Below are positions 22,209 to 41,394 of a stretch of 54,992 nt of DNA, piece by piece; the stretch's first letter is position 1, and each line of letters opens with the position of its first letter. The translations under genes and the position numbers were made by a program. A model generated the notes under the pieces. It did no database searches and was not told the DNA's origin. It saw only the letters and a list, made by a program, of their open reading frames with translations. The DNA is from a virus (lineage: Duplodnaviria; Caudoviricetes), in the IMG/VR virus record IMGVR_UViG_3300012987_000011, positions 1 through 54,992 of that record. One strand, written 5' to 3'.

Positions 22209-23083
22209 GCACGTTCTCCAATCACGTAGTCGGACTGCACTTCTCCGTGCTCGGGATTACCCCGAACACTCCAGCCCCACCAATACGTACCGACGTGCTT
22301 GCCGAGCAGGGGCTTCTCGGCGGTGAATGTCTTGAAGTGGCCGCGCACCCGATGGATCGCGGCGGCGCGGTGACTCCCACCGTGCTTGCTGCTGGCCACA
22401 GAGCCCTCACCGGGCAGGATGATGGTGTTGTAGCGCAACTCCCTGGCCGGGATGCCACGGCGCTTCTCCGTGCCGCTGCGCCGCATCTTGAGTGAGCCGG
22501 TCTCGCGGTGCTTGACGTTCTTGCAGTTGATGAGCCCGAGCGCCATCAGTGCGGGCAGCGCGAACATGTCCACCATCGCAGCGCTCTGGCGCGCAAGCTC
22601 CTCGGAGACCCCCTCGAACTTCGGGAGCGCCCGTGCCTCGATGAACTTGCCCTGCCTGTCGGTGTGGTACTGAGTGACCGTCGGCCAGACGAACAAGTCG
22701 TCGTTCTCGGGGTTGACAGCCAGGTAGACCAGCACAAACCCGCGATCGTCGTCAGCGGCCTTGAGGTATGCGCCGCAACGCATTCCGACCAGCTCCGACA
22801 TCATGGCCTCGTCTTTTTCGACGCAGGCACCGTCGGGCACCTCCCACTCCAGCCACATGTCGGAGTAGGGCAGCTTCAGTGGCCCCAGCTCGTCGCGCTG
22901 GTACCCGTCCTTGTCGCCGCGCCAGTACAGGTCCGCGGCGACCTGGATGTCGAACTTCACCGCGTCTGCGCACGGCTCCGCGAACTGCACGCCCTGGGCG
23001 TTGTTCCCGTGGTCATCCAGTAGGCCGGCGACCACGGCGACATCCCCGGCCATCATGCGGCGCAGCAGCGTCATCGCCTGCAT
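22205..23083 (-). CDS. Hypothetical protein with C-terminal HxVRGHF motif
   Basis: TGATG overlap; GGGAGG RBS; 'HRVRGHF...W...RG' tail common in phage proteins. Confidence 0.7.
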   Translation of the reverse strand: MQAMTLLRRMMAGDVAVVAGLLDDHGNNAQGVQFAEPCADAVKFDIQVAADLYWRGDKDGYQRDELGPLKLPYSDMWLEWEVPDGACVEKDEAMMSELVGMRCGAYLKAADDDRGFVLVYLAVNPENDDLFVWPTVTQYHTDRQGKFIEARALPKFEGVSEELARQSAAMVDMFALPALMALGLINCKNVKHRETGSLKMRRSGTEKRRGIPARELRYNTIILPGEGSVASSKHGGSHRAAAIHRVRGHFKTFTAEKPLLGKHVGTYWWGWSVRGNPEHGEVQSDYVIGERA

Positions 23084-23535
23084 CAGACGGCCTCCCAAAA
23101 CTCAATGCGCACTTCATATTTCGTGTTCATCAGGATGTGGTCCATGGCCCGGCAGGTCATGGCGCGGTGCCACGACGCCGGGTACTCCTCGGACCCCATG
23201 GCCTCGTGATACTCGCTGTCCACGCGGAACGTCTTGAGCACCACGACGCCGTTGACGGCCCGCTCGGTGGCACCCTTGACCATGGTGGCGATCGCCTCCG
23301 CGGACTGGTTCCACAGCCGCACCAGCTCCACTCCGGCCTTCTCGGGGATCGCGGTGTGGCCGTCGGCCCAGCGGACCACCGTCCGCTCACCGAACCCCAC
23401 GCGGGTGCCGAACCACTTGCGCGTCAACCCCATCCAGTCAATGAGGGCGCGCAGCTCTGCCGGGGTGATGTTGGCCGGGTCGGTGACCGACGGCTCACCC
23501 GTTTTCGGCAGAGGCACCACATTGTCTTCACTCAC
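23083..23535 (-). CDS. HTH regulator, DUF1870/Aca2/YdiL-like
   Basis: 'ITPAELRALIDWMGLT...ERTVVRWADG..AIP' and C-terminal 'PASWHRA'. Confidence 0.65.
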   Translation of the reverse strand: MSEDNVVPLPKTGEPSVTDPANITPAELRALIDWMGLTRKWFGTRVGFGERTVVRWADGHTAIPEKAGVELVRLWNQSAEAIATMVKGATERAVNGVVVLKTFRVDSEYHEAMGSEEYPASWHRAMTCRAMDHILMNTKYEVRIEFWEAV

Positions 23536-24123: not shown

Positions 24124-24463
24124 TGAACACCCGGCCACAGTCGTGCTCACCGATCGGGCCACCCGCGTTCACCACCGCGCAGGCGATGTCCACCAGCTGG
24201 CTCGTGAGCGCCGCCTGGACGATCTCCAGGCTCCGCGGCCGGGCGCCACTCAGTCGGCCGGCGTGGATGGCGCCAGCCACCATCAGCACGGCGTTGTACT
24301 GGTCGCACCCGAGCAAGAAGTGGGTGGCCTCCTCCGCCTCCGAGTGGATCTCCGGCAGCGTCAGGTGGTCGCTCAGTCCCTCGCGGAACACGGTGACGAT
24401 CTTGGCCACGGCCAGGGTCATGTTGTGGTCGTTCTCGTGGTAGACCTTCGCGGGGTCGATCAT
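24116..24463 (-). CDS. Hypothetical protein
   Basis: ATGA overlap; GGAGG RBS. Confidence 0.65.
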   Translation of the reverse strand: MIDPAKVYHENDHNMTLAVAKIVTVFREGLSDHLTLPEIHSEAEEATHFLLGCDQYNAVLMVAGAIHAGRLSGARPRSLEIVQAALTSQLVDIACAVVNAGGPIGEHDCGRVFSE

Positions 24464-24855
24464 GCCTCCTCCTCGTCTCCGAATACCTGCTTGCGCAGTT
24501 TGCGCAGGCTTCGCCAGAGATTCAATTCTTCACGTCCCCAACCGCGGTTGGGGAAGGTTTTCATGATGACGGTCACCGAACGGTCCAGCGTCCGCGCTAC
24601 CTCGCCGTAGCTGGCTCCGTCGTCCAATAGCTCGGTAGCGCGCTGGCGCTCCCATTCCGACAGCGGAGGCTTGAGCCGACGCGGCACCTGGTTCGCAGCG
24701 ATGCCGTCGGCGATGATCCGATCTACCGTCCGGATGTCGATCTTCATCTCCTGGGCGATCTCCACGTGGGTCATCGTGCCCCGCAGGCGGAACTCGATCA
24801 CGCGGTGCCGGGTGAGGTCGCTGTACCGGCGGACACGCTGGCTCTGGGGGATCAT
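24460..24855 (-). CDS. Double helix-turn-helix DNA-binding protein
   Basis: 'EIAQEMKIDIRTVDR' and 'LLDDGASYGEVARTL...FP.RGW', as in mycobacteriophage HTH proteins. Confidence 0.8.
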   Translation of the reverse strand: MIPQSQRVRRYSDLTRHRVIEFRLRGTMTHVEIAQEMKIDIRTVDRIIADGIAANQVPRRLKPPLSEWERQRATELLDDGASYGEVARTLDRSVTVIMKTFPNRGWGREELNLWRSLRKLRKQVFGDEEEA

Positions 24856-25094
24856 CAGAACCACACCCCCTTCCAGCCGATATGATCGGCTACGCGCTGA
24901 TACTCCACTTTCGGAGTGGCTGAATCGGTTTCCCACTGCTGGACCAGAAATGTATGGAAGTCGCCGGGGTGTTTTTCCTCATTGCGGTCGGCGTGCCGAA
25001 TGGCGGTGTACATACTGTGCCCGACACCGAGGATGTGTCGGGCGGAGTGATTGTCCTCGCCGAGCGCGACCCAGATCTCAGTTGGCGCGGGCAT
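24855..25094 (-). CDS. Hypothetical protein
   Basis: GGAGG RBS; stop overlaps the next start. Confidence 0.55.
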   Translation of the reverse strand: MPAPTEIWVALGEDNHSARHILGVGHSMYTAIRHADRNEEKHPGDFHTFLVQQWETDSATPKVEYQRVADHIGWKGVWF

Positions 25095-25362: not shown

Positions 25363-25670
25363 TACTTGGCCCTCCGTGACTGGATGCGGTGGATGTTGAT
25401 GAGGCGCAGGGTGCCGCGCTCGGTGTTGTTCAGGCGGCCACCGGAGAGCTGATAACCCTCGGGGTAGACGTAGGTGGCACCGGGGACGAAATCGCCCGTG
25501 CGGGAGTCGATCTTCTGCTTCTTGAGGGTCTTGCAGCGACCACAGATGGTGGACTCCACGTAGAACCGGCCGTCGATCTCCACGTCGTACGGCTTCCAGC
25601 TGTGCTGGTACCGGCGGCACTCGATGAACTGGTCCTTGATGACACGAGCAGGGTTGATGCGCTTGGCCAT
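25362..25670 (-). CDS. Hypothetical protein (C...H...CxxC)
   Basis: AGGA RBS; 'CRRYQHSW...CGRC...YPEGY'. Confidence 0.65.
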   Translation of the reverse strand: MAKRINPARVIKDQFIECRRYQHSWKPYDVEIDGRFYVESTICGRCKTLKKQKIDSRTGDFVPGATYVYPEGYQLSGGRLNNTERGTLRLINIHRIQSRRAK

Positions 25671-25681
25671 GGGGTGTTTTC

Positions 25682-25900
25682 CTAAACGGTTGGGCGGCGA
25701 GCTAATTCGTGGATGGCAAGGCCGGCCAGGGTGGCCAGTCCGGTGATGTAGGCGTGCAGCTCCAGGTCGTCCGGAGGTTCGAGCATGGAGGCGATGACGT
25801 CTTCGATGGTGCCTTCGGCGGCGCGTACCTCGGCGATGAGTTCGTCCATGTGGTAGCGGGTGCCGTCGATGATGAAGGGGGTGGGGAATGGTGCAATCAT
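25682..25900 (-). CDS. Hypothetical protein
   Basis: GGAG RBS, acidic 72 aa. Confidence 0.6.
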   Translation of the reverse strand: MIAPFPTPFIIDGTRYHMDELIAEVRAAEGTIEDVIASMLEPPDDLELHAYITGLATLAGLAIHELARRPTV

Positions 25901-25919
25901 GTTGTGCTCCAGGGGTTGA

Positions 25920-26095
25920 GGGGGTGGTGTCCAAACCGTTTAGCCGGGGGACTAGATCAGCGCCGAGCAATGACAGTCCAGCCTGTTAGTGACTCCCAGG
26001 GTTACCGTGAACCGTTCAGGACGGGTTGGTGCCTGCACTAGGCATTGGTCATCGACTTATTGGCTACGATCCTCCGATTACAGAACACCACCCCC
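25920..26095 (-). ncRNA. Candidate structured intergenic RNA (~176 nt)
   Basis: Ends pair over 13 bp (GGGGGTGGTGTTC / GGACACCACCCCC); internal helices; no ORF in the gap. Confidence 0.45.
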
Positions 26096-26107
26096 AGCCT
26101 GTTGCGC

Positions 26108-26380
26108 CTAGCTGGAGATCAGCTGGCTGGCCGCCCAACGCGGCACGACCGCGATGTCCCGGCGGTCGATCTGCACGCCCTGGGCCGCTGCGACCTCGGC
26201 GAGCCGGCGACGCGTCGGCTTCGACTCGTTGGCTTCGTCATACTCCACGACCAGCTGGGGCTTGCTGCCGCCGTTCAGGACGCGGGCACGGGCGACGTTG
26301 TACCCGGCGCGACGACCGACGCTGGTGACGTCGTTCGGGGTGATGTAGCGGGTGCCGGGGATGGTGATGGTGACCTTCAT
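26108..26380 (-). CDS. Hypothetical protein
   Basis: ATGA overlap; GAAAGG RBS. Confidence 0.65.
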   Translation of the reverse strand: MKVTITIPGTRYITPNDVTSVGRRAGYNVARARVLNGGSKPQLVVEYDEANESKPTRRRLAEVAAAQGVQIDRRDIAVVPRWAASQLISS

Positions 26381-26691
26381 GTTTTGTTGCCTTTCAGGGG
26401 TTTTGCGGATTTTCTGGCGACGCCTAGTCGGCCGCCATCTGTTTGGTTACACGGTGCGCATGCGGGTCTGATGTTGTCCCTGGTGTAGCGCCCTCCTTCT
26501 GCTCCTGGGATCGGGTGTCGATCCACGGTGATGGTCGAGATGGTTACCGTGCCTTCACACTTGGCCGATACGCGCAGGCTGCACGGTGCCTGCACCCCAT
26601 CTCCGAACTCTACGAGCAACCACAGCTTGCGAACGCGGCGTTGGTACGATGACCCCCGGTCGTTGCGGTTTGTGGTTCCCCGGTAAGTCAT
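26377..26691 (-). CDS. HNH endonuclease
   Basis: 'RGSS..RR.RK.WLL..FGDG...C...TVDR.PIPG..GG.Y...NIRPAC..CN'. Confidence 0.85.
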   Translation of the reverse strand: MTYRGTTNRNDRGSSYQRRVRKLWLLVEFGDGVQAPCSLRVSAKCEGTVTISTITVDRHPIPGAEGGRYTRDNIRPACAPCNQTDGGRLGVARKSAKPLKGNKT

Positions 26692-26990
26692 TTCGCTGCT
26701 GTGGCCTCACGCTGCTTACGGCTGTCTCGGTGCTTCTTGTTGGCGGCTGCGTGCGCCTCCCGGCAGCACTTGAGCCGACACCCGTAGTCCCGGTATCCAC
26801 TATCGGTGCCGTGGACGTGTCGCGGGGTGGGGGCATTGCGCTTGGCCTCTCTGACTCCAGCCTGGTACTCGGTGTTCGCGGCTTTGCAACGGTCGCAACG
26901 GCATCCGTGGTTGATGTAGCCGTTGAGCGTCCCATGGCGGGGGTCTCGTGGGTCATTCAGCAGCTTCCAGGTCGAATCGCTGACGGTCAT
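26688..26990 (-). CDS. Protein with two HG-x3-Y-x3-GCRC repeats (putative Zn-binding)
   Basis: HGTLNGYINHGCRCDRC and HGTDSGYRDYGCRLKCC. Confidence 0.7.
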   Translation of the reverse strand: MTVSDSTWKLLNDPRDPRHGTLNGYINHGCRCDRCKAANTEYQAGVREAKRNAPTPRHVHGTDSGYRDYGCRLKCCREAHAAANKKHRDSRKQREATAAK

Positions 26991-27091
26991 CGGTTGACGT
27001 ACCAATGTGCCGCCCAGCCGGCAGTGGCACCGACCAGTCCGATGAACATCAGCGCGGCGAAGAGTATCGCCAGCTTGCTGTGTGCGTCCAT
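26987..27091 (-). CDS. Small membrane protein (34 aa)
   Basis: GAAAGGA RBS; MDAHSKLAILFAALMFIGLVGATAGWAAHWYVNR; ATGA overlap. Confidence 0.6.
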   Translation of the reverse strand: MDAHSKLAILFAALMFIGLVGATAGWAAHWYVNR

Positions 27092-27115
27092 GTCTTTCCT
27101 TTCAGGGTTACTGAC

Positions 27116-27124
27116 ATTGTACCA
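27116..27124 (-). promoter_or_regulatory. Extended -10 promoter TGGTACAAT
   Basis: TGnTAnnnT in an intergenic gap ahead of an RBS; identical copies at 30018 and 32191. Confidence 0.65.
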
Positions 27125-27127
27125 TAC

Positions 27128-27421
27128 TTACCAGAGATCGCGTGCTCGGGTGACCGGCGGTTCCTTTTTCACGAACAACTGGTGGTCCACTCGGATCGAA
27201 CTGGCCTCGGCCAACTCGCCCCACGAACTCTTGCCATCCCCAATCTTCATTGTCCTGGTGGTCATCTCAAAGCCCACCACGCCGATCGGCATGACATGCA
27301 GGGGTGAGAATGCGTGGTACCGCAGGACGGTTATATGGAGGTCGGGGAGTGGGATGAACTCCAGTTCCTCGCACACCCCGTCATAGATCGGGGTGGGGTC
27401 ATTGCGCCATGGGTTAGTCAC
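27128..27421 (-). CDS. Hypothetical protein
   Basis: GTGA overlap. Confidence 0.55.
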   Translation of the reverse strand: MTNPWRNDPTPIYDGVCEELEFIPLPDLHITVLRYHAFSPLHVMPIGVVGFEMTTRTMKIGDGKSSWGELAEASSIRVDHQLFVKKEPPVTRARDLW

Positions 27422-27678
27422 TGATCGAGTCCCAGAACCATTCGGAACAACGCGCGTAATGCCGTGGCGGTGTCCAGTCTTCGATCCTCGATCTCACCCG
27501 TGACCAGATCGCGGACCACGATGAAGATGTCCAGCGTCGGGGTGGTGTGCTCGTACTCCTGATCGGGGTCATACCTGTCTCCAGTGTCCCAGTCGACGCG
27601 GACGTCCAGGATCTCTGACTCATGAGCGTTGACCTCCCCGGCGAATGCTTCGCGCAGTGCTTCACGGTGCTTGTTCAT
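27418..27678 (-). CDS. Hypothetical protein
   Basis: GGAGG RBS; ATGA overlap. Confidence 0.6.
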   Translation of the reverse strand: MNKHREALREAFAGEVNAHESEILDVRVDWDTGDRYDPDQEYEHTTPTLDIFIVVRDLVTGEIEDRRLDTATALRALFRMVLGLDQ

Positions 27679-27989
27679 GCCTCCGGCTTTCCACACTCGG
27701 GCCACTCGTCGCCGATCTGGCAGCGGTCATATTCCTCGGGAGTGACGTCCCGCCAACCAGACTCATCGGCCTTGTGGTCGGTGATCTCGATGGTCCAGCT
27801 GTCACCGTAGTACCTCGGCTGGTACTGGGTGGTGCACGTTTGCCGCCCCTTGCTGTCCGTGAGGCACGACTGATGGGACTCCATGGTGGTGTGGGCGGGC
27901 TCGAACTCCCGGTCGGTCACCTCCCCCCGGTCCGGTGCGCTACAGGCGGCCAGAGCGACGGCAGCGGCCGCGATCAGCAGGCGCTTCAC
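27675..27989 (-). CDS. Lipoprotein
   Basis: MKRLLIAAAAVALAACS lipobox; GTGA overlap. Confidence 0.7.
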   Translation of the reverse strand: MKRLLIAAAAVALAACSAPDRGEVTDREFEPAHTTMESHQSCLTDSKGRQTCTTQYQPRYYGDSWTIEITDHKADESGWRDVTPEEYDRCQIGDEWPECGKPEA

Positions 27990-28183
27990 GATCGCCTCGG
28001 CCAGGTGTAGCCACAGCCGGCGACGCCGCCGCACCTGTGGTCACCCTCGTGGTCCAGGGACTCGGTGCAGTAGTGGGCGCCCGCGTAGTGCTGCGGAACG
28101 TCGGGGTCACCGGGTTCGGTGTGGGTGATCGTCAGGCAGGTGATCGGCCGCTGCGGGTCGGGGGGTGGGGTTACTGCGCTCAT
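27986..28183 (-). CDS. Hypothetical protein starting MSAVTPPP (Cys/His-rich)
   Basis: ATGA overlap; starts in a motif copy. Confidence 0.6.
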   Translation of the reverse strand: MSAVTPPPDPQRPITCLTITHTEPGDPDVPQHYAGAHYCTESLDHEGDHRCGGVAGCGYTWPRRS

Positions 28184-28545
28184 GGCTCGATCACTCCCGA
28201 TTCCAGGTCTAGGACGTATCCTGCTGTGCGACGCCACCTTTTAAGCATCTCTCGGCTCAATGCGTTGTTGCGCTCGCCGTTGACCAGGGTGTCCCACGAT
28301 GGAAGGCTGGCGATGTCGTCGCCGTGGTGGATGACGCGCAGCCGCTCGGCCAGCTCGTCCACCTTGGCGGCACGCTCGGTCTGTTTCAGAGCGATCTCGA
28401 TGGCGGCTTGCTCGATCTTGTCGGCCTCGTCGCGCATGAACCCTGGGGAGTAACCCACGCCGGGGTGCACACCGCGGAACATGGCAAACTCATCCAGCGT
28501 GTCCGCCGCATCCCGAAGTCGTTCGGGCAGTGTGTGTTCGGTCAT
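28180..28545 (-). CDS. Hypothetical protein
   Basis: ATGA overlaps; 'LPERLRDAADTL...LRDEAD'-type sequence. Confidence 0.65.
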   Translation of the reverse strand: MTEHTLPERLRDAADTLDEFAMFRGVHPGVGYSPGFMRDEADKIEQAAIEIALKQTERAAKVDELAERLRVIHHGDDIASLPSWDTLVNGERNNALSREMLKRWRRTAGYVLDLESGVIEP

Positions 28546-28952
28546 TTGCTACTCACTTTCATATAGAACCCCACATCGTGGGGCAGGTTGTTGCGCTGAT
28601 ACCGGAACATCTTGTTGACAACCACCTCGGTGGCCAATTCACGCTCGGTGTAGGTGTGTGTGGTCCACGTGCGGGGGGCCAGGATGCGAATGATGTTGCG
28701 GGTCTTACCGCGCGTGATGATGGCACTGCGTACCGGACTGATGAACACCCGAACCTCACCACGCCTGCGGGCCTCGTACTGGCGGTGCTCGCCAATGGTG
28801 CCCACGCCAGCTGTCAGATCCCGGTTGGGGTGGTCGCAGAAATGGCCGACCGGGGTGTCGTTGTGCACCCAGCCCCGGTATCCGCAGACTGGTCCTCCGC
28901 CACGGCATTTCCGGACCTGGCGACCACAGTTGTCGCAGTACTTCATGACCAC
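28542..28952 (-). CDS. Hypothetical protein (CxxC)
   Basis: ORF fills the gap; CDNC. Confidence 0.55.
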   Translation of the reverse strand: MVMKYCDNCGRQVRKCRGGGPVCGYRGWVHNDTPVGHFCDHPNRDLTAGVGTIGEHRQYEARRRGEVRVFISPVRSAIITRGKTRNIIRILAPRTWTTHTYTERELATEVVVNKMFRYQRNNLPHDVGFYMKVSSK

Positions 28953-29025
28953 GCCCCGGTGATGAGTAGGAAATTGCCGATCAGGAGGCCCACGCTGACA
29001 CCGAGCCCGAAGACTACCCAGCGAT

Positions 29026-29988
29026 TCACTTCTCGCCGCCGATCACGGTCACCATCTTCTGGACCGCCTTCTGGACACGCGCCGCGGTGGCCTTGATGGC
29101 CTCGCCGGCCGGCGTGCCGGTGACCCCGGCCCAGCCCAGCAGGTAGGTCTCGCTGTACGCCTCTGTGTCGAGCCCGAGGATCGCTCCGGCCACATAGGCT
29201 GCCGACTCGGCTTCCAGCTCGCGTACGGCCCGGTCAGCCGGTGCGTCGGGGTGCCTGTTGCCGTCGCCGTCCACGTGCAGGATGACGTGGGCCATCTCGT
29301 GCAGCGCGGTCTTGGCCTGCATCGCGGGCTCCATGGCGTCGCTGACGACGACGCGCTTGCTGCCGTCGGTGGTGGTGTACCCCTTGGCGCTGCCGTCGAT
29401 GGGCGCCAGATCGAAGCTCCAGCCGATCGAGTCCAGCCAGCAGGACACAGCCAGGGTGAGCCCGCCATGGTCCGCTCCGGTGAGCAGGGGTGGGTGTGCT
29501 GCGCCCAGGTTGACCACGGGCGCTCCCTCAATCTGATCGGTCTGGTCGATGTCGAACACCGACACCACCGGGTAGTAGGTCCGGTAGCGCTTGTTGCCCT
29601 TCTCGTCCAGGACCGGGTTGCCGTCCTCGTCCACGATGAGCTTCTTGCTGAACCCGAAGATCCGGAGCCCGGTCTCACCCTTGCGGACCTGGCGACCCTT
29701 CTCCTGCCACGCCTTGAACCCGGCGACCAGGGTGGGCATCTCCAGCCCCCGGCTGATGCGCTGAGACCACATCAGGATCAGGTTGTTGAACGAGTAGCTG
29801 TGGAAACCCTTCATGAACTGGAGGTAGGCCTTCCACTCGTCGGACTCGGACAGCGTCTGGACCTTGAGCGCGATGGCGCGGTGCAGCTCGGAGGCCTCCG
29901 CCTGCCGTGCCTCGTTCAGTTCGGCGCGCTTCGCCTCGGACAGCTTCGGGCGGGTGGGGGTCTTGCGCTTACGGGTGGCGGTGGCCAT
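29026..29988 (-). CDS. ardC: ArdC-like antirestriction protein (DUF1738 ssDNA-binding + zincin HExxH domain)
   Basis: 'FHSYSFNN...VAGFKAWQEKGRQVRKGE...VFDIDQT', 'HEMAH', 'ELEAES.AY', 'YS..YL.GW'. Confidence 0.85.
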   Translation of the reverse strand: MATATRKRKTPTRPKLSEAKRAELNEARQAEASELHRAIALKVQTLSESDEWKAYLQFMKGFHSYSFNNLILMWSQRISRGLEMPTLVAGFKAWQEKGRQVRKGETGLRIFGFSKKLIVDEDGNPVLDEKGNKRYRTYYPVVSVFDIDQTDQIEGAPVVNLGAAHPPLLTGADHGGLTLAVSCWLDSIGWSFDLAPIDGSAKGYTTTDGSKRVVVSDAMEPAMQAKTALHEMAHVILHVDGDGNRHPDAPADRAVRELEAESAAYVAGAILGLDTEAYSETYLLGWAGVTGTPAGEAIKATAARVQKAVQKMVTVIGGEK

Positions 29989-30017
29989 CTCAGATCCTCT
30001 CGCAGGGGTTTGATGTC

Positions 30018-30026
30018 ATTGTACCA
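30018..30026 (-). promoter_or_regulatory. Extended -10 promoter TGGTACAAT
   Basis: Intergenic, upstream of the ardC-like RBS. Confidence 0.65.
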
Positions 30027-30030
30027 CAGG

Positions 30031-30465
30031 TTAGGTGCGTTGACTGATGATGTCAACGGGCGTGCGGTATTGCGGGGTGCGCTCCGTCATGTCGCGGGCA
30101 CGGTGGCGGTCCAGATGGATCTGCGCGTTCTTCTTCGCGGTGGCCTTGGTGGTCCACTCCACGTTGCCGGTGTCACTGGCAACGCCACGCTGGCAGCGAC
30201 GGCAATGTGCGCCGTAGACAGTGCGGTACGAGTAGGCGCGCTTCTCGATCACGACGGAGTTGATTGTCGCCAACAGGGTCTCGGCCGCCATCAGCTTCTG
30301 CACCGATGCGGTCTCGTACTCGTCCACCACATCCTCGGACGGGCGGCCGGACACTGCGTCATAGGCGGCACTGGCCTCGTCCAGGCGGGTGGTCTCGTTG
30401 TCATACCAGCGCCGCGCCTGGGCAATGGTGTAGCTGGGCAAGGGGGGTGGGGTCGTTGCGCTCAT
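30031..30465 (-). CDS. Hypothetical protein starting MSATTPPP
   Basis: ATG within a motif copy; C-terminal CxxC...H...H. Confidence 0.65.
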   Translation of the reverse strand: MSATTPPPLPSYTIAQARRWYDNETTRLDEASAAYDAVSGRPSEDVVDEYETASVQKLMAAETLLATINSVVIEKRAYSYRTVYGAHCRRCQRGVASDTGNVEWTTKATAKKNAQIHLDRHRARDMTERTPQYRTPVDIISQRT

Positions 30466-30469
30466 AGGT

Positions 30470-30892
30470 TCAGCCCTGCCACTCGAAAGTCTTACCGACC
30501 AGCTCGGGCTGGCGGCCGCACTCCACGATGGTGACGACATAGAACGCGTCCAGGTTGACGCCGTGGCCGTCGCCGGTGTACTCGAACAGCAGGTCTTGCA
30601 GGTCGTCGTCCGTCATGCCCGCGTTGGTGGTGACCTCGTGGAACTGAGTGGACTCGTGGCCGTCGACATAGGCGTTTTCCACTTTGATACGCATGATCAT
30701 CGGATCCATCTCGGGGTCGGCGGGTAGTGCCATCGGCACTTTGAAGTCGACGTCCCACACGCCGAACCCGTTGGCGTACAACGCGTTGACAATGGTTCGT
30801 CCCATGGTGGCCTGTTCGTTGTCATCCATCGGAATGCGGGAACTGGGGGTGACTCCCAGGGTGACAGACAGGGGTGGGGTCGTTGCGCTCAT
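30470..30892 (-). CDS. Hypothetical protein starting MSATTPPL
   Basis: GGGAG RBS; ATG within a motif copy. Confidence 0.7.
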   Translation of the reverse strand: MSATTPPLSVTLGVTPSSRIPMDDNEQATMGRTIVNALYANGFGVWDVDFKVPMALPADPEMDPMIMRIKVENAYVDGHESTQFHEVTTNAGMTDDDLQDLLFEYTGDGHGVNLDAFYVVTIVECGRQPELVGKTFEWQG

Positions 30893-30893
30893 A

Positions 30894-31361
30894 TCAAACT
30901 CCCAAAAAATCTTCGAGTGATTCACGGGTTACATGGGGATTCCAGCCCTCGCCGGGCGTGCTGTTGACAACGAGACCTGTTGCCAGCCAGCCGATCGCGT
31001 GGTTGACGTCGTCGTCTTCGATCATGTCACCGTCGCTGTCGTAGCCGTAGGATGGCCGGTTACCCGCGTCGTCCTGGACCATGACGGCGTTCATGTCCTC
31101 CATCTGCATGTAGTTCAGCAGATCGCGGGCGGCATCGACCGGGCCGTAGGGGGGTGGGGTCGTTGCGCTCGGGCCGTAGGGGGGTGGGGTCGTTGCGCTC
31201 AGCATGCCGATGAGTGCGTGAGCCTGTTCGCTGGAGGTGGCCCAGGCGATGACGCCGTCATCATTGACGACGCCATACATACCGGAGGGGTGGCCGGGAA
31301 TATCGGTGTCGGACAAGATGACTCCATAGCCATCTTCGGGGGGTGGGGTCGTTGCGCTCAT
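30894..31361 (-). CDS. Acidic hypothetical protein with SATTPPP repeats (alternative in-frame start at 31442)
   Basis: GGAG RBS before ATG 31361; exact 30-bp tandem duplication at 31141-31200. Confidence 0.65.
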   Translation of the reverse strand: MSATTPPPEDGYGVILSDTDIPGHPSGMYGVVNDDGVIAWATSSEQAHALIGMLSATTPPPYGPSATTPPPYGPVDAARDLLNYMQMEDMNAVMVQDDAGNRPSYGYDSDGDMIEDDDVNHAIGWLATGLVVNSTPGEGWNPHVTRESLEDFLGV

Positions 31362-31403
31362 GTGATCTCCAGGGGTTGGGGGTGGGGTCGTTGCGCTATA
31401 GCC

Positions 31404-31412
31404 ATTATACCA
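31404..31412 (-). promoter_or_regulatory. Extended -10 promoter TGGTATAAT flanked by motif copies
   Basis: Consensus TGnTATAAT between motif copies at 31421 and 31379. Confidence 0.7.
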
Positions 31413-31446
31413 CACCGAAGGGGGTGGGGTGGTTGCGCTCATAGCG

Positions 31447-31689
31447 TCAGGCGGAGTTCCGCCGCATATGGTCGATGAACAGGTGCTCGGGCAACCACGC
31501 CGTCGGAGTCGGCGACAACTCCCGGTAGGCACAGTTGACCCACCCTTCGGTCTCCAATTCGTTCTGCGCGTTGGCAATGAAGTACTCGGGCGCCATGTTC
31601 GGAAACGCAATCAACGTGGCCTCGTAATACTCCCAGCTGCCCGTGGACGCATCGGATTCGTGAGCCTGCATGACTCGGACTCTGCGCAT
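31447..31689 (-). CDS. Hypothetical protein
   Basis: ORF tiles between neighbours. Confidence 0.55.
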   Translation of the reverse strand: MRRVRVMQAHESDASTGSWEYYEATLIAFPNMAPEYFIANAQNELETEGWVNCAYRELSPTPTAWLPEHLFIDHMRRNSA

Positions 31690-31692
31690 GGG

Positions 31693-32139
31693 TCAGCCCT
31701 GCTCGTGTGTCGGGATACCGTAGTGGTCGCAGTCGCAGAGATCGGGCATGTATGCGGGCTGGACCGTGCTGCCGATGTTCTGGTGAGCGGTGGCCGGGTA
31801 GTTCTCCAGGAATCCGTCCAGGCCAACGTACTTGGACATTCCGGTGTAAACGCGCGCGTTCGGGTTGACGTCGAACACGCCCTGGATCGCATCGCGGTAG
31901 GCATGCCAGCATGCGGCCTTCAATCGGCGACCGGAATGTGACCGGCGGGCACCGGGAGCGGACAGCTCCGTCTTGGGCCACATGGCAGCACCGGACTCGG
32001 CAACGATGACACGGGCACGAAATCGGGTGGGGGACATCTGAGTGCCGATCTCCACGCGCAGATTCTCGGAGTAGTGGGCCATGCTGATCTTGGCCACGGC
32101 GGAGCGGAAGTCTTCGGGAGTGATGCCGGTAATGATCAC
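31693..32139 (-). CDS. Hypothetical protein
   Basis: AGGA RBS and upstream promoter; 'GARRSHSGRRL.AACWHA.RD'. Confidence 0.7.
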   Translation of the reverse strand: MIITGITPEDFRSAVAKISMAHYSENLRVEIGTQMSPTRFRARVIVAESGAAMWPKTELSAPGARRSHSGRRLKAACWHAYRDAIQGVFDVNPNARVYTGMSKYVGLDGFLENYPATAHQNIGSTVQPAYMPDLCDCDHYGIPTHEQG

Positions 32140-32190
32140 TTGCGGTTTCCTATCTCAGTTGGTTGGGCGGGTGGTCGGTGGTACAAGTCC

Positions 32191-32199
32191 ATTGTACCA
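32191..32199 (-). promoter_or_regulatory. Extended -10 promoter TGGTACAAT
   Basis: Intergenic, upstream of 32139. Confidence 0.65.
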
Positions 32200-32214
32200 C
32201 ACTCGGTGGAGTGC

Positions 32215-32600
32215 TCCGTGGCGGCCGCCAAATACAGGTAGGGCGCCAAAACCATTAGGAGGGTAGGACGGCCGCCAAAAAATATAAAGGGGTCGGAGCG
32301 GGGTCGGTAGCGGCCGCCAATAGTAGGTAGGGGGTCGGTAGGGGTCGGTAGGGGTCGGAGGTATTGACCGGCTACGCCCGTCGGCCGCATCCGCCCACCC
32401 GCCGGTCGCGGCCGCCCGCGCGTTGCTGCCACGGCGGCCGCGCGGCCGCGCGCACCGACCCGGCCGCGCGGAATCGCCCGGCCGGCAACGGGTCCGGACG
32501 GCCGCCGGCCCGCGCGCGAAACGTATTCGCCGGCTGCCCGGCCTGGCGGCCTGGCGGAGGCCGGCGGCGATTCCACGGGAGCGCTTGCCATTCCAACCGA
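32215..32600. repeat. Non-coding repeat zone
   Basis: GCCGCCAA/GCGCCAAA x4, GGGGTCGG(TA) x5, then a very GC-rich palindrome-dense tract. Confidence 0.75.
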
Positions 32601-32602
32601 TA

Positions 32603-32633
32603 CGGCCGCCACCCGGTGAACGGGTGGCGGCCG
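32603..32633 (-). terminator. Perfect 13-bp hairpin ending the 36.7-32.6 kb operon
   Basis: CGGCCGCCACCCG-GTGAA-CGGGTGGCGGCCG, 7 nt after the stop at 32641. Confidence 0.7.
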
Positions 32634-32640
32634 CAACGGG

Positions 32641-32793
32641 TTACGCGTCGTCGTCGTCGTCTGCCTCCGTTCCGCCATGGCCGGAGCATTCCGCTCCACC
32701 GCACTGACATTCTTTCTTCGGCTGGAGCGCGGCTCCGGCGACGGCCACGGCCACGCCTCCGCCCAGAATGAACGTGGATGCTGTCGCGCTCAC
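32641..32793 (-). CDS. Small membrane protein (50 aa)
   Basis: GTGA overlap; hydrophobic N-terminus, Cys and acidic tail. Confidence 0.5.
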   Translation of the reverse strand: MSATASTFILGGGVAVAVAGAALQPKKECQCGGAECSGHGGTEADDDDDA

Positions 32794-32963
32794 AGAGTCA
32801 CCGACATTCCGTCTCGGAGCCATCGCCGGGTGGCCAACTCACCACGGAGCGCAAAGCCTCCGGCGAAGCACACGAGGAACACGGAGGCCGCCAGCATGAG
32901 GATCGCTCCGGCCTCCGCCCTGGAGATCTCCAGCCACGCCGCCAGCGCGGCCGCCGGGCTCAT
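32790..32963 (-). CDS. Small membrane protein (57 aa)
   Basis: ATGA overlap; one TM helix. Confidence 0.55.
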   Translation of the reverse strand: MSPAAALAAWLEISRAEAGAILMLAASVFLVCFAGGFALRGELATRRWLRDGMSVTL

Positions 32964-33082
32964 CGTGGCCACGCCGCGACAACAAGCGCCACCACGGCCA
33001 GAATGGCCAGCGCGGTGAACACGTACGGCCACGCGCTACCGGCCGCCAGCGCGAGCATGTAGCCATCCACAATGGCGTTCAT
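32960..33082 (-). CDS. Small membrane protein (40 aa)
   Basis: GGAG RBS; ATGA overlap; MNAIVDGYMLALAAGSAWPYVFTALAILAVVALVVAAWPR. Confidence 0.55.
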   Translation of the reverse strand: MNAIVDGYMLALAAGSAWPYVFTALAILAVVALVVAAWPR

Positions 33083-33360
33083 GCGAGATCTCCGAGCAAG
33101 CCCCAACCGTCTGCCATATCGGCCGCCAGCTCTGCGGCCGCCGTATCGGCCTCCACGTTCATGCTCAGCGCGTCAGCGGCCGCGTGGATGCCCTGCCAGT
33201 CTCCGGCCGCCAGCGCGGCCGCCAGAGCGCGAACGTTCGGCGACTGTTCCCGTAGGCCGTCCGCCTGGAGCCACCCGGCGACGACGGCCGCACCGTCATC
33301 CGCCAGCACCGTGGCGCTCCGCCGATCGTCGCGCTGGTCTCTTACCGTCACGTACAACAT
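33079..33360 (-). CDS. Hypothetical protein
   Basis: Shared TGAGATGGGA leader. Confidence 0.65.
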   Translation of the reverse strand: MLYVTVRDQRDDRRSATVLADDGAAVVAGWLQADGLREQSPNVRALAAALAAGDWQGIHAAADALSMNVEADTAAAELAADMADGWGLLGDLA

Positions 33361-33403
33361 GGTTTTCGTCCCATCTCATTGGTTGGTGCCCGTGAACCGT
33401 TCC

Positions 33404-33460
33404 GGCTCCGGCTGACGCGCTCCAGGTCTCTCACACCTGGAGCGCATCCGTCGGAGTCAG
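33404..33460. repeat. Conserved intergenic hairpin element, copy 1
   Basis: Arms identical to 35660-35715; ~21-bp imperfect stem. Confidence 0.85.
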
Positions 33461-35610
33461 TCCGTCAGCTTGGACAGGTCGTAACTACCGGGTGCCGGAG
33501 CCGTCGAGTCGCGCAGCACGCGCACGTTCCGGATGTGCTCCGGCCGGACCTCCAGGCCGCCCAGCTTCTTGCCCAGCTCGATGGCGATGGCGTAGGTATC
33601 GGCCGCATGCTCCGCAGCGCGTCGCGCGTCACCGGCCGCTGTCCTCATCTCCACACGGGAATTGCTGAGAGTGCCAGCGTTGTTCGGCAACTCCACGTCG
33701 ACCACAACGGGCGTGATCCAAAACGCTTTGTACCAATCACGGCCGCTGGCACTGGCCTCCGGCAGGTACTCACCATTGCGATTCCGGCCGTCGCGGTCGT
33801 AGAACCCGATACCGCGCAACGTGCGGTCCAGCTCCGAGCACTGCGACGTGAGATCGCCACGCATGCACGCCACTTTGTTCACGATGCCGCCGGGCATCCA
33901 CATTTCCAGCGTGTCCGCCAGCTTGCGTTCGGCGGCCGCGACGGAGTCACGCGCTCCGACGGCCTCCAGGCGGAGCCGCTGAACTTCGGCGGTCTGTTCC
34001 GTCCGCACGCGTTCAATCTGCGACAGGTAGGCCTGCTGCTGATCCGCCAGTGCCAGCGTGTGTTTGGCCTTCAGCTCTGCCAGCAATGCGCGGACCTCCG
34101 GCGACCGACCCGGCTCCACGGCCGTCCACCCGTCGGAGCCCAGATCACGCGCGGTCAGCTTGCGGCCGTCGGAGGCTCTGGTCAGCTCGACGTCGCGGTA
34201 GTTCTCGCACGTCACATCGTGGTCCAAGTCTTCACTGACAACCCAAGCGGTGGGGCCGTCGCTGACCGTGCCTCCGGCTCCGACGGCCGCAATCGCATCC
34301 GCCATGAACAACGGACCGAACGGAAATTCCAGACTGTCGCCGGTCGACACCACGGTCCACTCCGCACTGTGGTGCTCGTGGTCGCGCTGGTAATGCCGGT
34401 ATCCCGTGCGAACCGTGAGAACGATCGGCAGGTCGTTCACCGGCAATCCGACGCGCCATTTACCCGCGCTGGCATGCTCCACGACGCCGTGCATACCGGC
34501 GGCCGCGACGGCCTCCGCCAGCGTCAGACCGGCCGGGGAATCCGCGACCGGCTCCGGCTCCGCGATGGCGGCCGCCGGGCCGTATGCCGTTACGGTCCAG
34601 CCGTCTTGAATCCAACGTCCGAGCCCGTCGCCGGAGCCGTCGCCGTATCCGTCCATGATCGACGTCACGCCGTCGACCACCTGGACGGTGTAACGGGTGC
34701 CGGAGCGCGTAACCGCGCCACCGTTGCCTGCCAGCTCGCACGCCTCCGGCAGACGCATACCGTGCACGGGTAGCTCCGGCCGGGTGGCCGGAGCCGCCGC
34801 CTCCGTCTCTTCGGCCACCTGATGGCGGAGCACGCGCCACGGGTACGTCGACAGTCCGTTGGTGCCGACGTAGTCGACTCCGTCGCGATAGAGACCCGTG
34901 GAATCGCTGACCACATAGAACGACTGACTGGCGACCACTCCACCCGGCCCGGCGACGCGCATTGCCTCCGCCAGCTCCAGCCCGGTCACGATCTCCAGGG
35001 CGAAACGACTGCCGTCCGCGCGATGAACCGGAGCCATGCGGGCCGTGGTGCGGAACGGAGATCCGCCATTGGAGCAGATCTCCACGATGCGATCGGCCGC
35101 GCTATACCCGGTCAGCCAATAGTGAGCCCCGCTGACATCGCGCATGATTCCGTTGATTCCGGTCAGCGCGGCCGCGATGGCGGCCGGGTAGAACACGTCG
35201 GTCTCTGTGTCGTCGTCGTCGTTGTCGTCGTCGCCGGTGACGTCGATCGACGTCACGACGTAGTCGTAGCTGGAGTCCGTTTCGTCATATTCGTCGGAGT
35301 CGATCTCCATGTACTCACCATCGGTGGCTTGCTCCGGCTCCGAGTCCAGGACGTAACGGGTCTCTTCGCCATCGTCGTTGCCGTCGTCATCCACGGCCAC
35401 CATGGCCACCACGGTCACCGGGTCTCCGGTCTCCATCTCTTCGGCATCGCAGTAGCTGTCATGTTCCGAGCATCCGCCGGAGCATGAGACCTCGCGCGAC
35501 GGAATGGCGGACTCGATGGCGGTCACCCGGTAGGTGACTCCGATCGAGGTGTCACGGATGAACCCGCCGATACCGGCTTGCTCTGCTGCGGTCGTGATTT
35601 GAAGCGTCAT
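33457..35610 (-). CDS. 717-aa protein: acidic N-terminus, four ~73-aa internal repeats, coiled coil
   Basis: Long ORF with AGGA RBS; repeats start GLELAEA, GMRLPEA, GLTLAEA, LFMADA and each ends in W-x-V or W-x-x-V. Confidence 0.85.
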   Translation of the reverse strand: MTLQITTAAEQAGIGGFIRDTSIGVTYRVTAIESAIPSREVSCSGGCSEHDSYCDAEEMETGDPVTVVAMVAVDDDGNDDGEETRYVLDSEPEQATDGEYMEIDSDEYDETDSSYDYVVTSIDVTGDDDNDDDDTETDVFYPAAIAAALTGINGIMRDVSGAHYWLTGYSAADRIVEICSNGGSPFRTTARMAPVHRADGSRFALEIVTGLELAEAMRVAGPGGVVASQSFYVVSDSTGLYRDGVDYVGTNGLSTYPWRVLRHQVAEETEAAAPATRPELPVHGMRLPEACELAGNGGAVTRSGTRYTVQVVDGVTSIMDGYGDGSGDGLGRWIQDGWTVTAYGPAAAIAEPEPVADSPAGLTLAEAVAAAGMHGVVEHASAGKWRVGLPVNDLPIVLTVRTGYRHYQRDHEHHSAEWTVVSTGDSLEFPFGPLFMADAIAAVGAGGTVSDGPTAWVVSEDLDHDVTCENYRDVELTRASDGRKLTARDLGSDGWTAVEPGRSPEVRALLAELKAKHTLALADQQQAYLSQIERVRTEQTAEVQRLRLEAVGARDSVAAAERKLADTLEMWMPGGIVNKVACMRGDLTSQCSELDRTLRGIGFYDRDGRNRNGEYLPEASASGRDWYKAFWITPVVVDVELPNNAGTLSNSRVEMRTAAGDARRAAEHAADTYAIAIELGKKLGGLEVRPEHIRNVRVLRDSTAPAPGSYDLSKLTD

Positions 35611-41092: not shown

Positions 41093-41394
41093 CGCTGCTC
41101 CATCCAGAACTCGGCGCCGACGCGGTTGCGCTCGGCCTCGGCGGTCTCCCACGGCCCCATCACCTGCTGGAGCAGTTCCCAGCGCCCCACCTGCTCCTCG
41201 GCCAGGGCTTTGTCCACACCGGCCTGGGCAACCTCGCGGTGGTCGCTCATAGCGACGGGGCGGCCGTCCCAGCCGATGGCGAACCGCTTCGGGCTGTTCG
41301 CCGGCAGCAGCACGAACCCGTGCACCTTCGCGGCGGTCAGCATGTCCTCCAGGCTGATTCCGATACCGGAGGCCTTCGTGCAGGTCTTACACAT
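41089..41394 (-). CDS. Hypothetical protein
   Basis: GAGGA RBS. Confidence 0.6.
   Translation of the reverse strand: MCKTCTKASGIGISLEDMLTAAKVHGFVLLPANSPKRFAIGWDGRPVAMSDHREVAQAGVDKALAEEQVGRWELLQQVMGPWETAEAERNRVGAEFWMEQR

Follow-up and report, generated by a model that had tools for sequence, protein, structure and literature searches.

The asymmetric stoperators of the cluster A phages (L5, TipsytheTRex) are present in many repeats that all keep one orientation with respect to transcription, and they are found at a promoter as well as further along the transcribed unit (PMC9283540; PMC5559632). As described in the parts of these papers used here, a temperate phage of this kind has >20 sites, which are distributed over its whole genome in the small gaps between genes and are recognized by the immunity repressor. 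The reading protein is a monomer that carries two DNA-binding domains, and the asymmetric sites, located at promoters and in intergenic DNA, act in an orientation-dependent manner (PMC9283540). The start-associated sequences of cluster K phages (SAS/ESAS) are also asymmetric, keep one orientation and occur only in the non-structural part of the genome. The SAS itself, the 13-mer GGGATAGGAGCCC, contains the Shine-Dalgarno (SD) core and lies 3-7 bp upstream of the start codons, with a strong preference for ATG, of genes from unrelated families (PMC3203893). In Microbacterium phages, cluster EC has an 18-bp asymmetric motif, EF has SAS-like repeats, EI has 30-bp repeats and EG has inverted repeats, all of them within short gaps between genes, either 14-30 bp ahead of a start or at the RBS (PMC7302621). 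Polar start-tied repeats (SAS, EC, EI) thus recur in actinophage genomes and are still unexplained. Here we analyze a repeat in an uncultivated soil actinophage whose record comprises 54,992 bases and is ~70% complete (about 30% of the genome is missing). This whole stretch is referred to as the window.

A polar repeat within 4.6 kb

An 18-mer pattern scan for GCGCA-N4-CCCCACCCC returned 10 exact matches, all on the - (coding) strand between 26824 and 31438 (low coordinates 26824, 27390, 28162, 30444, 30871, 31151, 31181, 31340, 31379 and 31421). This occurrence is not random, as 0.00 exact matches are expected (100 shuffles). With ≤2 mismatches permitted there were 14 matches compared with 2.31 expected, the additions being two one-mismatch sites on the - strand (29487 and 29951) and two two-mismatch sites on the + strand (21733 and 45976). 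Using a PWM built from the 10 exact copies, these copies score 27.7-40.2 bits, the runners-up score 11.6 (29504), 8.5 (29968) and 7.9 bits (28596), and the background stays at ≤5 bits, with 4.9 bits for the best + strand match in the window. The distribution is bimodal and has no intermediate copies. Because of this gap we count 10 solid copies and two marginal ones (29487 and 29951), with none comparable elsewhere in the window on either strand. Two of the ten form a perfect tandem duplication of 30 bp (31140-31199; the unit is 10 codons) and count as one, so nine copies are independent. An earlier sequence-only reading had counted 12 copies, of which ten are exact and two are the marginal one-mismatch sites. 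Its further statements, that the copies share one orientation, that no equally good copy lies elsewhere and that the central 4 nt vary, were all borne out.

Each copy is an island of identity whose flanks are unrelated on both sides. A common stretch of 20 bases is identical in six copies. Across the ten, the 14 outer positions are invariant and variation is confined to the contiguous 4-nt spacer, which takes five forms (ACGA in six copies, then ACCA, GTAA, ATGA and ATGC). Beyond the 18-mer core, the repeated sequence spans 20-24 nt, and the 24-nt unit equals exactly eight codons. The copies and neighboring elements are:

31421-31442, - strand: copy 1, spacer ACCA, 36.9 bits; starts at an ATG 4 nt past the stop of an 80-aa gene
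31379-31399, - strand: copy 2, 33.2 bits; preceded by TATA rather than ATGA
31340-31361, - strand: copy 3, 40.2 bits; on the ATG of a 155-aa gene (MSATTPPPEDG), with GGAGA 6 nt upstream; gene callers choose this start (31361)
31151-31201, - strand: copies 4 and 5, the 30-bp tandem pair inside the 155-aa gene (SATTPPPYGP twice)
30871-30892, - strand: copy 6, on the ATG of a 140-aa gene (MSATTPPLSV)
30444-30465, - strand: copy 7, on the ATG of a 144-aa gene (MSATTPPPLPS)
28162-28183, - strand: copy 8, spacer GTAA; on the ATG of a 65-aa gene (MSAVTPPP), its ATGA overlapping the stop of the upstream 121-aa gene
27390-27410, - strand: copy 9, spacer ATGA, shorter by one base (ATG-GCGCA); in a 97-aa gene, where it is translated as W-R-N-D-P-T-P
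26824-26841, - strand: copy 10, spacer ATGC; translated as K-R-N-A-P-T-P within the segment that links two Cys-rich repeats of a 100-aa protein
29951-29968, - strand: marginal copy, one mismatch, 8.5 bits; in an ArdC-N/Peptidase_M78 gene
29487-29504, - strand: marginal copy, one mismatch, 11.6 bits; inside the ArdC-like gene, probably a chance match
32190-32199, - strand: P32199, promoter-like site TGGTACAATG, the first promoter of the block
31403-31412, - strand: P31412, extended -10 promoter-like site TGGTATAATG, with copy 1 on its upstream and copy 2 on its downstream side
30017-30026, - strand: P30026, promoter-like site TGGTACAATG, upstream of the ArdC-like gene
27115-27124, - strand: P27124, promoter-like site TGGTACAATG
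27134-27391, - strand: indel segment, 258 bp or 86 codons, in frame; the body of the 97-aa gene
24460-24936, - strand: 158-aa protein with two HTH motifs (residues 45-77 and 92-125), candidate binder

Exact TGGTAYAATG sites occur only four times in the window, all in this block and on the same strand. P31412 is the only one of these promoters bracketed by strong copies: the 18-mer of copy 1 lies upstream at ~-41 to -24, that of copy 2 at ~+2 to +19, in the 5' end of the predicted transcript, and that of copy 3 at ~+41 to +58, with spacings of 42 and 39 bp. P30026 has the marginal copy 29951 at ~+50, P32199 has a degenerate, C-rich motif-like stretch at the downstream position equivalent to copy 2, and P27124 has none in this genome. 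On the + strand, TGGTACGAT at 26642 is a one-mismatch promoter match, of which 1.75 are expected by chance.

Start codons, reading frames and relatives

Five copies begin in one register on an ATG (ATGAGCGCA...; 31442, 31361, 30892, 30465 and 28183); the ATG at 31442 gives the 31361 gene a second possible start, upstream and in frame. Four of these starts, all of them ATG, give MSATTPP(P/L) and one gives MSAVTPP, and the encoded proteins have no common family. Overall, 5-6 of the 10 copies lie ≤20 nt after a start, compared with an expected fraction of 0.054-0.059 (P ~1e-4). An SD-like GGAG, separate from the motif, is found upstream at three of the five starts. Seven to eight copies are inside coding sequence, and eight of the ten are in the S-A-T-T-P-P register of an open frame. 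Two strong copies (26824 and 27390) and the marginal one at 29951 are read in another frame, as R-N/K-x-P-T; of these, 27390 begins 14 nt past a GTG (27421) and 29951 begins 20 nt past an ATG (29988). The sequence-only reading had noted the five ATG-starting copies with their MSA(T/V)TPP neighbors, the three other-frame copies and the closeness of two of these to gene starts, and we found each of these as described.

The motif is retained in relatives that are 88-99% identical (few low-depth contigs). In X3 contigs, 20 differences are spread over 27370-27697 and none falls in 27370-27409. For 31378-31605, among the 15 differences listed of 20, one lies in 31378-31444 and turns the spacer to consensus: in both X1 and X3, copy 1 has ACGA (31431 G>C). 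Identity to X3 falls sharply just upstream of the copy 1 ATG. An orthologue of the 144-aa protein (P0005, 93% identical) retains MSATTPPPL, and in a strain variant (P0008) the tandem pair is single, so that its copy number is polymorphic. The segment 27134-27391 is absent from contigs of two other independent runs, which come from two studies (X2, side 218; X4, side 30). This well-supported 258-bp indel breaks at one end within the copy 9 C-tract and at the other immediately next to the conserved promoter module; an in-frame remnant of 11 codons is left. In the contigs without the segment, copy 9 ends ~10 nt upstream of the P27124 -10; for copy 1 at P31412 the distance is 11 nt. Four collections yielded no other phage or contig with the motif, and no cultured or catalogued relative there carries it.

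These data support a constraint on the nucleic acid rather than on the peptide, because the motif bases are kept in two reading frames, the variation forms a contiguous 4-nt block instead of falling on third codon positions, relatives with diverged flanks retain the motif, and the N-terminal segment is missing from distant homologues of two proteins whose genes carry the motif. On these grounds we agree with the sequence-only reading, which had placed the site at the DNA or RNA level. One may alternatively suppose that MSATTPPP is a common N-terminal tag (targeting, turnover or polyproline stalling) and that the DNA identity reflects recent duplication. Such a tag would be consistent with the eight copies in its register and with its presence in close orthologues, but we regard it as most improbable given the R-N/K-x-P-T readings of two strong copies and one marginal copy and the absence of synonymous variation outside the spacer. 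Moreover, copy 2 falls in the 5' UTR if the 31361 start is used. For the 140-aa and 155-aa proteins, the distant homologues lack the tag, their alignments beginning at residue 58 at the earliest or past the internal tandem copies. None of 425 candidate proteins was scored when the N-terminal 40 residues served as the query. No RNA structure was predicted at the motif (z -1.38 to +0.62 in six windows), and no Rfam 15 family reached the gathering score cut-off in 25500-33500, where three sub-threshold matches occur, none on a copy.

A putative operator and its alternatives

We tentatively favor, with somewhat less than even confidence, a polar bipartite operator or roadblock for a phage regulator of the early gene block, stoperator-like and yet outside that family. 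The half-sites would be (T)GAGCGCA and CCCCACCCC(CC), with centers ~11 bp apart and a free 4-bp spacer between them. The regulator, which would be phage-encoded (a host protein is less likely), may bind as a monomer or via tandem domains; the two-domain monomer of the cluster A sites is a plausible working model (PMC9283540). Its target would be the small early or host-takeover genes at 32.2-26.7 kb with their four extended -10 promoters. Occupancy of copies 1 and 2 would occlude P31412, and copies at the 5' ends of downstream cistrons would be orientation-dependent roadblocks, as in cluster A. Since there is almost no intergenic DNA, the sites may be placed in the most tolerant coding positions, namely the first eight codons or interdomain linkers. 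The C-tract in any frame would encode a Pro/Thr-rich disordered peptide, so that the identical MSATTPP N-termini would be a by-product. What we observe is that the copies are non-random, polar, associated with starts, independent of frame, placed around a promoter and conserved in relatives; protein binding, a DNA rather than an mRNA target, repression and the identity of the binder are what we infer. The window encodes several uncharacterised DNA-binding proteins, and the 158-aa two-HTH protein may be the binder. An integrase, site-specific recombinase or immunity repressor was not recognised among the proteins scanned in this 70%-complete contig, and thus a role in lysogenic silencing is not evident.

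Some observations count against an operator. The exact ATG register shared by five copies is expected of a translational site and is not required of a DNA operator. Strong copies bracket P31412 alone, and the confinement of all copies to 4.6 kb differs from the genome-wide spread of stoperators. An mRNA-level role would have an unstructured, G-poor stretch running from the AUG serve as a translational operator or enhancer, either bound by a phage or host RNA-binding protein that co-regulates the cistrons or paired with a complementary RNA. All ten copies have the sense orientation of the mRNA, minimum-energy folds leave most of the motif unpaired, the enrichment and common register of the copies at starts fit, and the nearest described class, the cluster K SAS, is likewise suspected in translation initiation (PMC3203893). 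We nevertheless consider this role rather unlikely, as copy 1 lies upstream of P31412, copy 2 precedes the AUG by 36 nt in a 5' UTR and three copies are gene-internal. For a protein that binds single-stranded RNA, an invariant site of 20-24 nt interrupted by four free positions would also be unusual, and an RNA-binding domain was not found in the 54 distinct window proteins scanned. The + strand site at 26642 could drive an antisense RNA over copy 10, but a mismatched site of this kind is expected by chance, and a trans complement of the motif was not found in the window, where the + strand holds nothing above the 4.9-bit match.

Recombination and replication offer further explanations. The 24-nt homology could by itself, without a binding protein, swap gene bodies behind an ATG and seven codons, the identity being the result of copy-paste. 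The islands of identity between unrelated flanks, the whole-codon lengths of both units, the X3 identity drop at the copy 1 ATG and the PD-(D/E)XK exonuclease encoded by the phage are compatible with such a linker, and the 258-bp indel and the tandem copy-number variation weakly hint at crossover. The sequence-only reading had asked whether gene gain and loss breakpoints in relatives fall in the motif; the indel end inside copy 9 and the tandem pair fit such an association, but among the joints listed only one of five touches a copy and none joins two copies. In addition, the in-frame remnant resembles a deletion more than a cassette insertion, recombining direct repeats would delete the intervening genes, neither an integrase nor a site-specific recombinase was found, the four collections hold no exchange partner with the motif, and the free spacer and the promoter bracketing are left unexplained. 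A linker of this kind thus appears distinctly unlikely. The same reading had offered an operator/stoperator or a crossover site; the bracketing of P31412 favors the operator and one indel breakpoint the crossover, which does not settle the choice. Both roles might also be combined, with the 24-nt unit (ATG and seven codons) as the early-gene-regulon operator and the preferred crossover point for gene bodies behind a fixed start, which we judge decidedly improbable. If true, a lytic actinophage would possess a system of gene cassettes that needs no integrase, and a single sequence would provide the start codon, the N-terminus, the regulation and the homology for recombination. The 258-bp indel, which lies between a copy and the promoter module, would then be an example of such an event. 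Finally, the five-copy cluster at 31140-31442 with its internal promoter could be an origin within coding DNA, its direct repeats being iterons for a phage initiator. Five same-orientation copies of ~22 bp in 300 bp with a promoter among them have this appearance, and among the phage proteins are a primase-polymerase and a helicase with a C-terminal match to a 'DNA binding protein' PHROG. However, the spacings are irregular (42, 39, 159 and 30 bp), five more copies are scattered across 4.3 kb on gene starts, no AT-rich unwinding element is adjacent, and 32200-32660 is a better origin-like region, with palindromes, five CCGACCCC repeats and an AT-rich run. We therefore regard iterons as very improbable.

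Comparison with known repeats

The operator that we favor resembles the cluster A stoperators in asymmetry and repetition and apparently in placement at a promoter and along the transcription unit, and all 10 copies match the direction of transcription. The sequences differ, as the sequence-only reading had stated for cluster A and cluster K alike: cluster A sites are 13-mers of unrelated sequence, for instance GGTGGTTGTCAAG for Che12, whereas the present motif is an 18-24-mer, and GCGCA-N4-CCCCACCCC does not fit the 13-bp consensus (GGTGG..TGTCAAG type). In place of >20 genome-wide sites in intergenic spaces there are 10 copies, all within 4.6 kb (26824-31438; about 30% of the genome is missing), mostly in the first codons of genes. 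Two bracket P31412 and 7-8 are within coding sequence.

T4 RegA-type operators have one regulator and sites overlapping the AUG of many early mRNAs, as a translational role would have here. RegA sites are short, AU-rich and poorly conserved. A RegA-like protein was not found here, and several of the present copies are not at starts.

With the cluster K SAS the motif shares asymmetry, one orientation, a non-structural location and linkage to the mostly ATG starts of unrelated genes. Unlike the SAS, it begins at the start codon, has no SD and reaches 20 nt into the gene, which fixes the N-terminal peptide. Because these defining features of both families are lacking, we place it outside the cluster A stoperators and the cluster K SAS. 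The Microbacterium repeats are similar in having ~5-12 polar copies per genome, among right-arm non-structural genes and tied to a downstream start; their sequences are unrelated to ours, and the portions of that report used here describe none inside coding sequence or in two frames (PMC7302621).

We class the motif with the start-associated repeats known in actinophages, as a new form. It is unusually long, invariant and inside coding sequence, so recoding could cleanly separate nucleic-acid from peptide function. It suggests how unrelated proteins can come to have the same N-terminus because a regulatory site imposes it. Should the connection with the gain and loss of genes be borne out, the motif would provide a concrete mechanism of mosaicism for fast-evolving early phage regions.

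Copies of the motif and the level of constraint

The window contains ten exact matches to the motif GCGCA-N4-CCCCACCCC, every one of them on the minus strand between 26824 and 31438 (expected 0.00, 100 shuffles). It is a real, strongly non-random feature. A position weight matrix derived from these ten matches gives them 27.7-40.2 bits; the next sites reach 11.6, 8.5 and 7.9 bits and the background at most 5. Because of this gap we treat ten copies as solid and two as marginal. The sequence-only reading had claimed 12 copies, of which ten are thus exact, while those at 29487 and 29951 have one mismatch each and are marginal. The conserved unit exceeds the 18-mer first described: A is found at -1 in nine of ten copies and G at -2 in seven, one or two extra C bases usually follow on the 3' side, and 20 bases are identical in six copies.

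We numbered the copies along the coding strand, with low coordinates 31421, 31379, 31340, 31181, 31151, 30871, 30444, 28162, 27390 and 26824. Copies 4 and 5 form a perfect 30-bp tandem duplication (31140-31199) that encodes SATTPPPYGP twice. A strain variant of the tandem-bearing protein (P0008) has only one unit (145 aa versus 155 aa), which leaves nine independent copies. Five copies lie in the same register relative to an ATG (31442, 31361, 30892, 30465 and 28183), copy 9 begins 14 nt past a GTG at 27421, and copy 2 is located in the leader ahead of 31361. Copies 4, 5 and 10 are internal to genes, in what look like interdomain linkers. With the alternative start at 31442, six of ten copies fall within 20 nt after a start (five without it), positions that make up 5.9% or 5.4% of the total, respectively (binomial P 7e-6 or 9e-5). 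No family is common to the motif-bearing proteins.

The constraint on the motif acts at the nucleic-acid level, not on the peptide, which bears out the earlier proposal of a DNA- or RNA-level site. Eight copies are in the open-frame S-A-T-T-P-P register; copies 9 and 10, together with the marginal copy at 29951, fall in a frame shifted by one base and give R-N/K-x-P-T. The ten copies vary only in a contiguous 4-nt block (ACGA in six, then ACCA, GTAA, ATGA and ATGC), with no periodic third-position change. The alignments of distant homologues also exclude the motif segment: for the 140-aa protein (Gordonia and Streptomyces phages) they start at residue 58 or later, and for the sole homologue of the 155-aa protein the alignment covers only the domain after the internal copies. 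The paralogue at 41387-41821 shows no conservation of the linker that holds copy 10. Because every frame of the motif's C-tract yields Pro together with Thr or His, a disordered linker or N-terminus could accommodate it. In six 81-nt windows around copies, the RNA folded no better than shuffles (z -1.38 to +0.62), with the motif mostly unpaired, and an Rfam search returned nothing at threshold.

Gene order and promoters

The record is a whole IMG/VR virus, linear, of 54,992 bases (CheckV completeness 70). All recognisable genes of the window are on the minus strand.

Gene order, read 5' to 3' on the minus strand
54897, minus: endolysin
51475, minus: PD-(D/E)XK exonuclease
50125, minus: primase-polymerase
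48833, minus: helicase
45596, minus: WhiB-like regulator
44937, minus: HTH_31 protein
43602, minus: C5 cytosine methyltransferase
41821, minus: HTH_17 protein with Cys-rich repeats
35610, minus: 717-aa orphan
32660-32200, minus: non-coding region, 460 bp
32.2-26.7 kb, minus: motif block
26691, minus: HNH endonuclease, after the motif block
24936, minus: two-HTH protein, after the HNH endonuclease
between the two-HTH protein and the 594-aa ORF, minus: glycosyl- and methyltransferases
14532, minus: 594-aa ORF, adjoining the portal
12826, minus: portal
9267, minus: major head protein
2-4528, minus: 1509-aa open frame, running off the contig end

The 594-aa ORF has no Pfam family and is taken, from position alone, to be the large terminase; the 1509-aa frame probably encodes the tape measure protein. 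The record lacks the minor tail genes, in agreement with its 70% completeness, and a search for tRNA found none. By portal, the closest cultured phages are Tsukamurella TPA4, Gordonia Apricot and Mycobacterium Marvin-like phages. As all have <50% identity, we regard the virus as an uncultivated phage with a Mycobacteriales-type host and without a close catalogued relative. The 717-aa orphan (33457-35610, minus) is acidic, with several internal A-x-x-A-G-x-G-G-x-V...Y-x-V repeats, and has no Pfam or PHROG match.

There are four exact TGGTAYAATG words in the window, each of them on the minus strand and within the motif block. These promoter-like sites are named by coordinate.

TGGTAYAATG words
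27115-27124, minus: P27124
30017-30026, minus: P30026
31403-31412, minus: P31412
32190-32199, minus: P32199

In the whole window, TGNTANNNT is found five times on the minus strand (the four promoters and 13458) and twice on the plus strand. A simple -35/-10 scan of 25500-33500 gave no promoters and no -35 match; the four promoters belong solely to the extended -10 type. If transcripts start ~7 nt past the -10 element, copy 1 would lie at -41..-24 relative to P31412, copy 2 at +2..+19 and copy 3 at +41..+58. P32199 has a degenerate C-rich stretch at the position that copy 2 takes relative to P31412. At P30026 and P27124 the -10 is directly followed by a shared AACCC(C)TG...GA leader, and a related AACCC(C)TG..GGAG leader follows each of the four words. 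The gene at 25900 is preceded by a diverged copy of the same leader and starts with a degenerate motif (ATGATTGCACCATTCCCCACCCCC). A one-mismatch promoter word (TGGTACGATG; 26642-26651, plus strand) lies antisense inside the HNH gene, and a transcript from it would cross copy 10, bearing the motif complement.

The 460-bp non-coding region upstream of P32199 (32200-32660, minus) contains a hairpin with 19-bp arms (32597-32639), an AT-rich run, five direct CCGACCCC repeats packed into 62 bp (32295-32357) and three to four copies of a palindrome around GCGGCCGC (TGGCGGCCGCCA), located at 32219, 32308 and 32625, with a half-site at 32269. Its makeup resembles that of a second set of operators or of the replication origin. 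Directly after P30026, the gene at 29026-29988 (minus) fuses an ArdC N-terminal domain to a Peptidase_M78/IrrE-like domain. This is likely an anti-restriction early gene, which suggests that the motif block be read as a host-takeover region.

Relatives and breakpoints

The exact 20-mer was found in no stretch of viral_contigs and as single chance matches in genome_contigs (two) and metagenome_contigs (one). The degenerate 18-mer matched at least 119 stretches in viral_contigs, all single among the 80 matches listed. Megablast of 26500-32000 against phages gave no match, and distant blastn recovered the ArdC-like gene alone in three of four records and a short stretch in Cafasso. A 116-nt query had one 19-nt match, a single intragenic copy in Gordonia phage VanLee; we consider this a chance match, given two matches (<=2 mismatches) in 17.7 kb versus 0.54 expected. 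Related-locus searches gave no relative, whether the query was the 140-aa protein or the portal. Gordonia phage Apricot was rejected as one, because its similarity is limited to the portal and its non-structural region is unrelated. The sole cluster found for the 140-aa protein was one at 98% identity, a search with the first 40 residues of the 182-aa frame gave 425 candidates of which none scored, and the 148-aa protein had no usable match in the ESM Atlas.

Part of 26500-32700 is present in 11 sequencing runs from five studies, none on record as RNA. We compared this segment with contigs from four runs (X1-X4). The X2-X4 pieces listed differ from the window at ~0.5-12% of bases over most of the block. 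An X3 contig covering 27370-27697 has 20 differences, none of them in 27370-27409 (copy 9 and the next 20 nt); at 27410, X3 changes the ATG beside copy 9 to GTG. Another X3 contig (31378-31605) also has 20 differences. Among the 15 listed, 14 are in 31445-31557 and one is in 31378-31444, which spans copies 1, 2 and P31412; this one changes the copy 1 spacer to the consensus ACGA. Two orthologues, P0001 and P0005 (98% and about 93% identical, respectively), keep the N-terminal peptide.

X2 (side 218) and X4 (side 30), from different studies, have a joint at 27133-27392 that skips 258 bases. The loss (27134-27391) removes 86 codons of a 97-aa gene in frame and leaves an 11-codon remnant. Its first breakpoint is within the C-tract of copy 9 and its second directly before the TGGTAAG..TGGTACAATG promoter module. 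Copy 9 of these relatives ends ~10 nt upstream of the P27124 -10, nearly the geometry of copy 1 and P31412 (gap of 11 nt). The absence of the gene body from contigs of two other metagenome studies indicates that the gene is dispensable or recently gained. The proposal that copies act as crossover sites gains one breakpoint inside a copy, but the four other joints listed touch no copy, and among the joints listed none links two copies.

Possible mechanisms and comparison with known repeats

The site is long and invariant. It has two parts in a strictly polar arrangement, with a free spacer that spans roughly one helical turn. Its copies cluster around one promoter, are repeated at the heads of downstream cistrons and are conserved while their flanks drift. 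These features point to recognition as duplex DNA, by a protein that is a monomer or has tandem domains and that would control initiation at P31412; further downstream, bound copies would serve as a roadblock. We put this operator and roadblock reading forward tentatively. The main fact it leaves unexplained is the fixed ATG register. For this reason an mRNA-level translational site, which that register favors, stays in contention, if as a doubtful candidate. A recombination linker alone, in which an ATG-motif unit may have spread as a module, would fit that register, the 258-bp indel and the tandem-copy polymorphism; with most listed joints away from the copies, we think it unlikely. That the motif is both operator and crossover point seems quite unlikely, iterons are improbable, and a peptide tag, for a motif kept in two frames, is very improbable. 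Three further ideas were rejected. A phage RNA polymerase promoter does not fit a motif that lies over start codons, and no polymerase of that type was identified. A G-quadruplex or i-motif is at odds with the two G/C tracts that are all an isolated copy offers, and a host REP-like element is not borne out by genome_contigs, from which the motif is absent as such an element.

Candidate sequence-specific binders include two paralogues of 100 aa and 144 aa (26688-26990 and 41387-41821, respectively, minus), each with two H-G-x-x-G-Y...G-C-R-C-x-x-C modules. The larger (41387-41821) also has an N-terminal HTH_17, and the Cys-rich module is variously named HTH DNA binding, HNH-associated and WhiB-like in PHROGs. 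The 158-aa two-HTH protein (24460-24936) is a member of an HTH family that is widespread among actinophages (457 phage records; among 12 listed, none is named repressor), and its AlphaFold2 model is unusable (mean pLDDT 41.1). Further candidates are the 189-aa HTH_31 protein (44368-44937), a 150-aa protein (23083-23535) and the WhiB-like protein (45213-45596). No single candidate stands out.

Cluster A repressors are described as controlling initiation at operators and acting as a roadblock at stoperators (PMC9283540). The motif would work similarly to stoperators and start-associated sequences (SAS), but it is a member of neither class because it differs in sequence, in length, in placement with respect to start codons and in distribution over the genome. 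Of the earlier suggestions, a DNA operator is the tentative leading reading. Actinophage repeats of this kind have been described as intergenic and upstream of starts, although rare intragenic copies may appear in the aligned repeat figures of PMC7302621 and PMC3203893. Searches of main article text on start-associated repeats and stoperators turned up no motif that extends from the start codon 20 nt into the coding sequence with its bases preserved in two frames. The motif is a new variant among the start-associated polar repeats of actinophages, with a DNA operator, an mRNA operator and a recombination linker as the candidate mechanisms.
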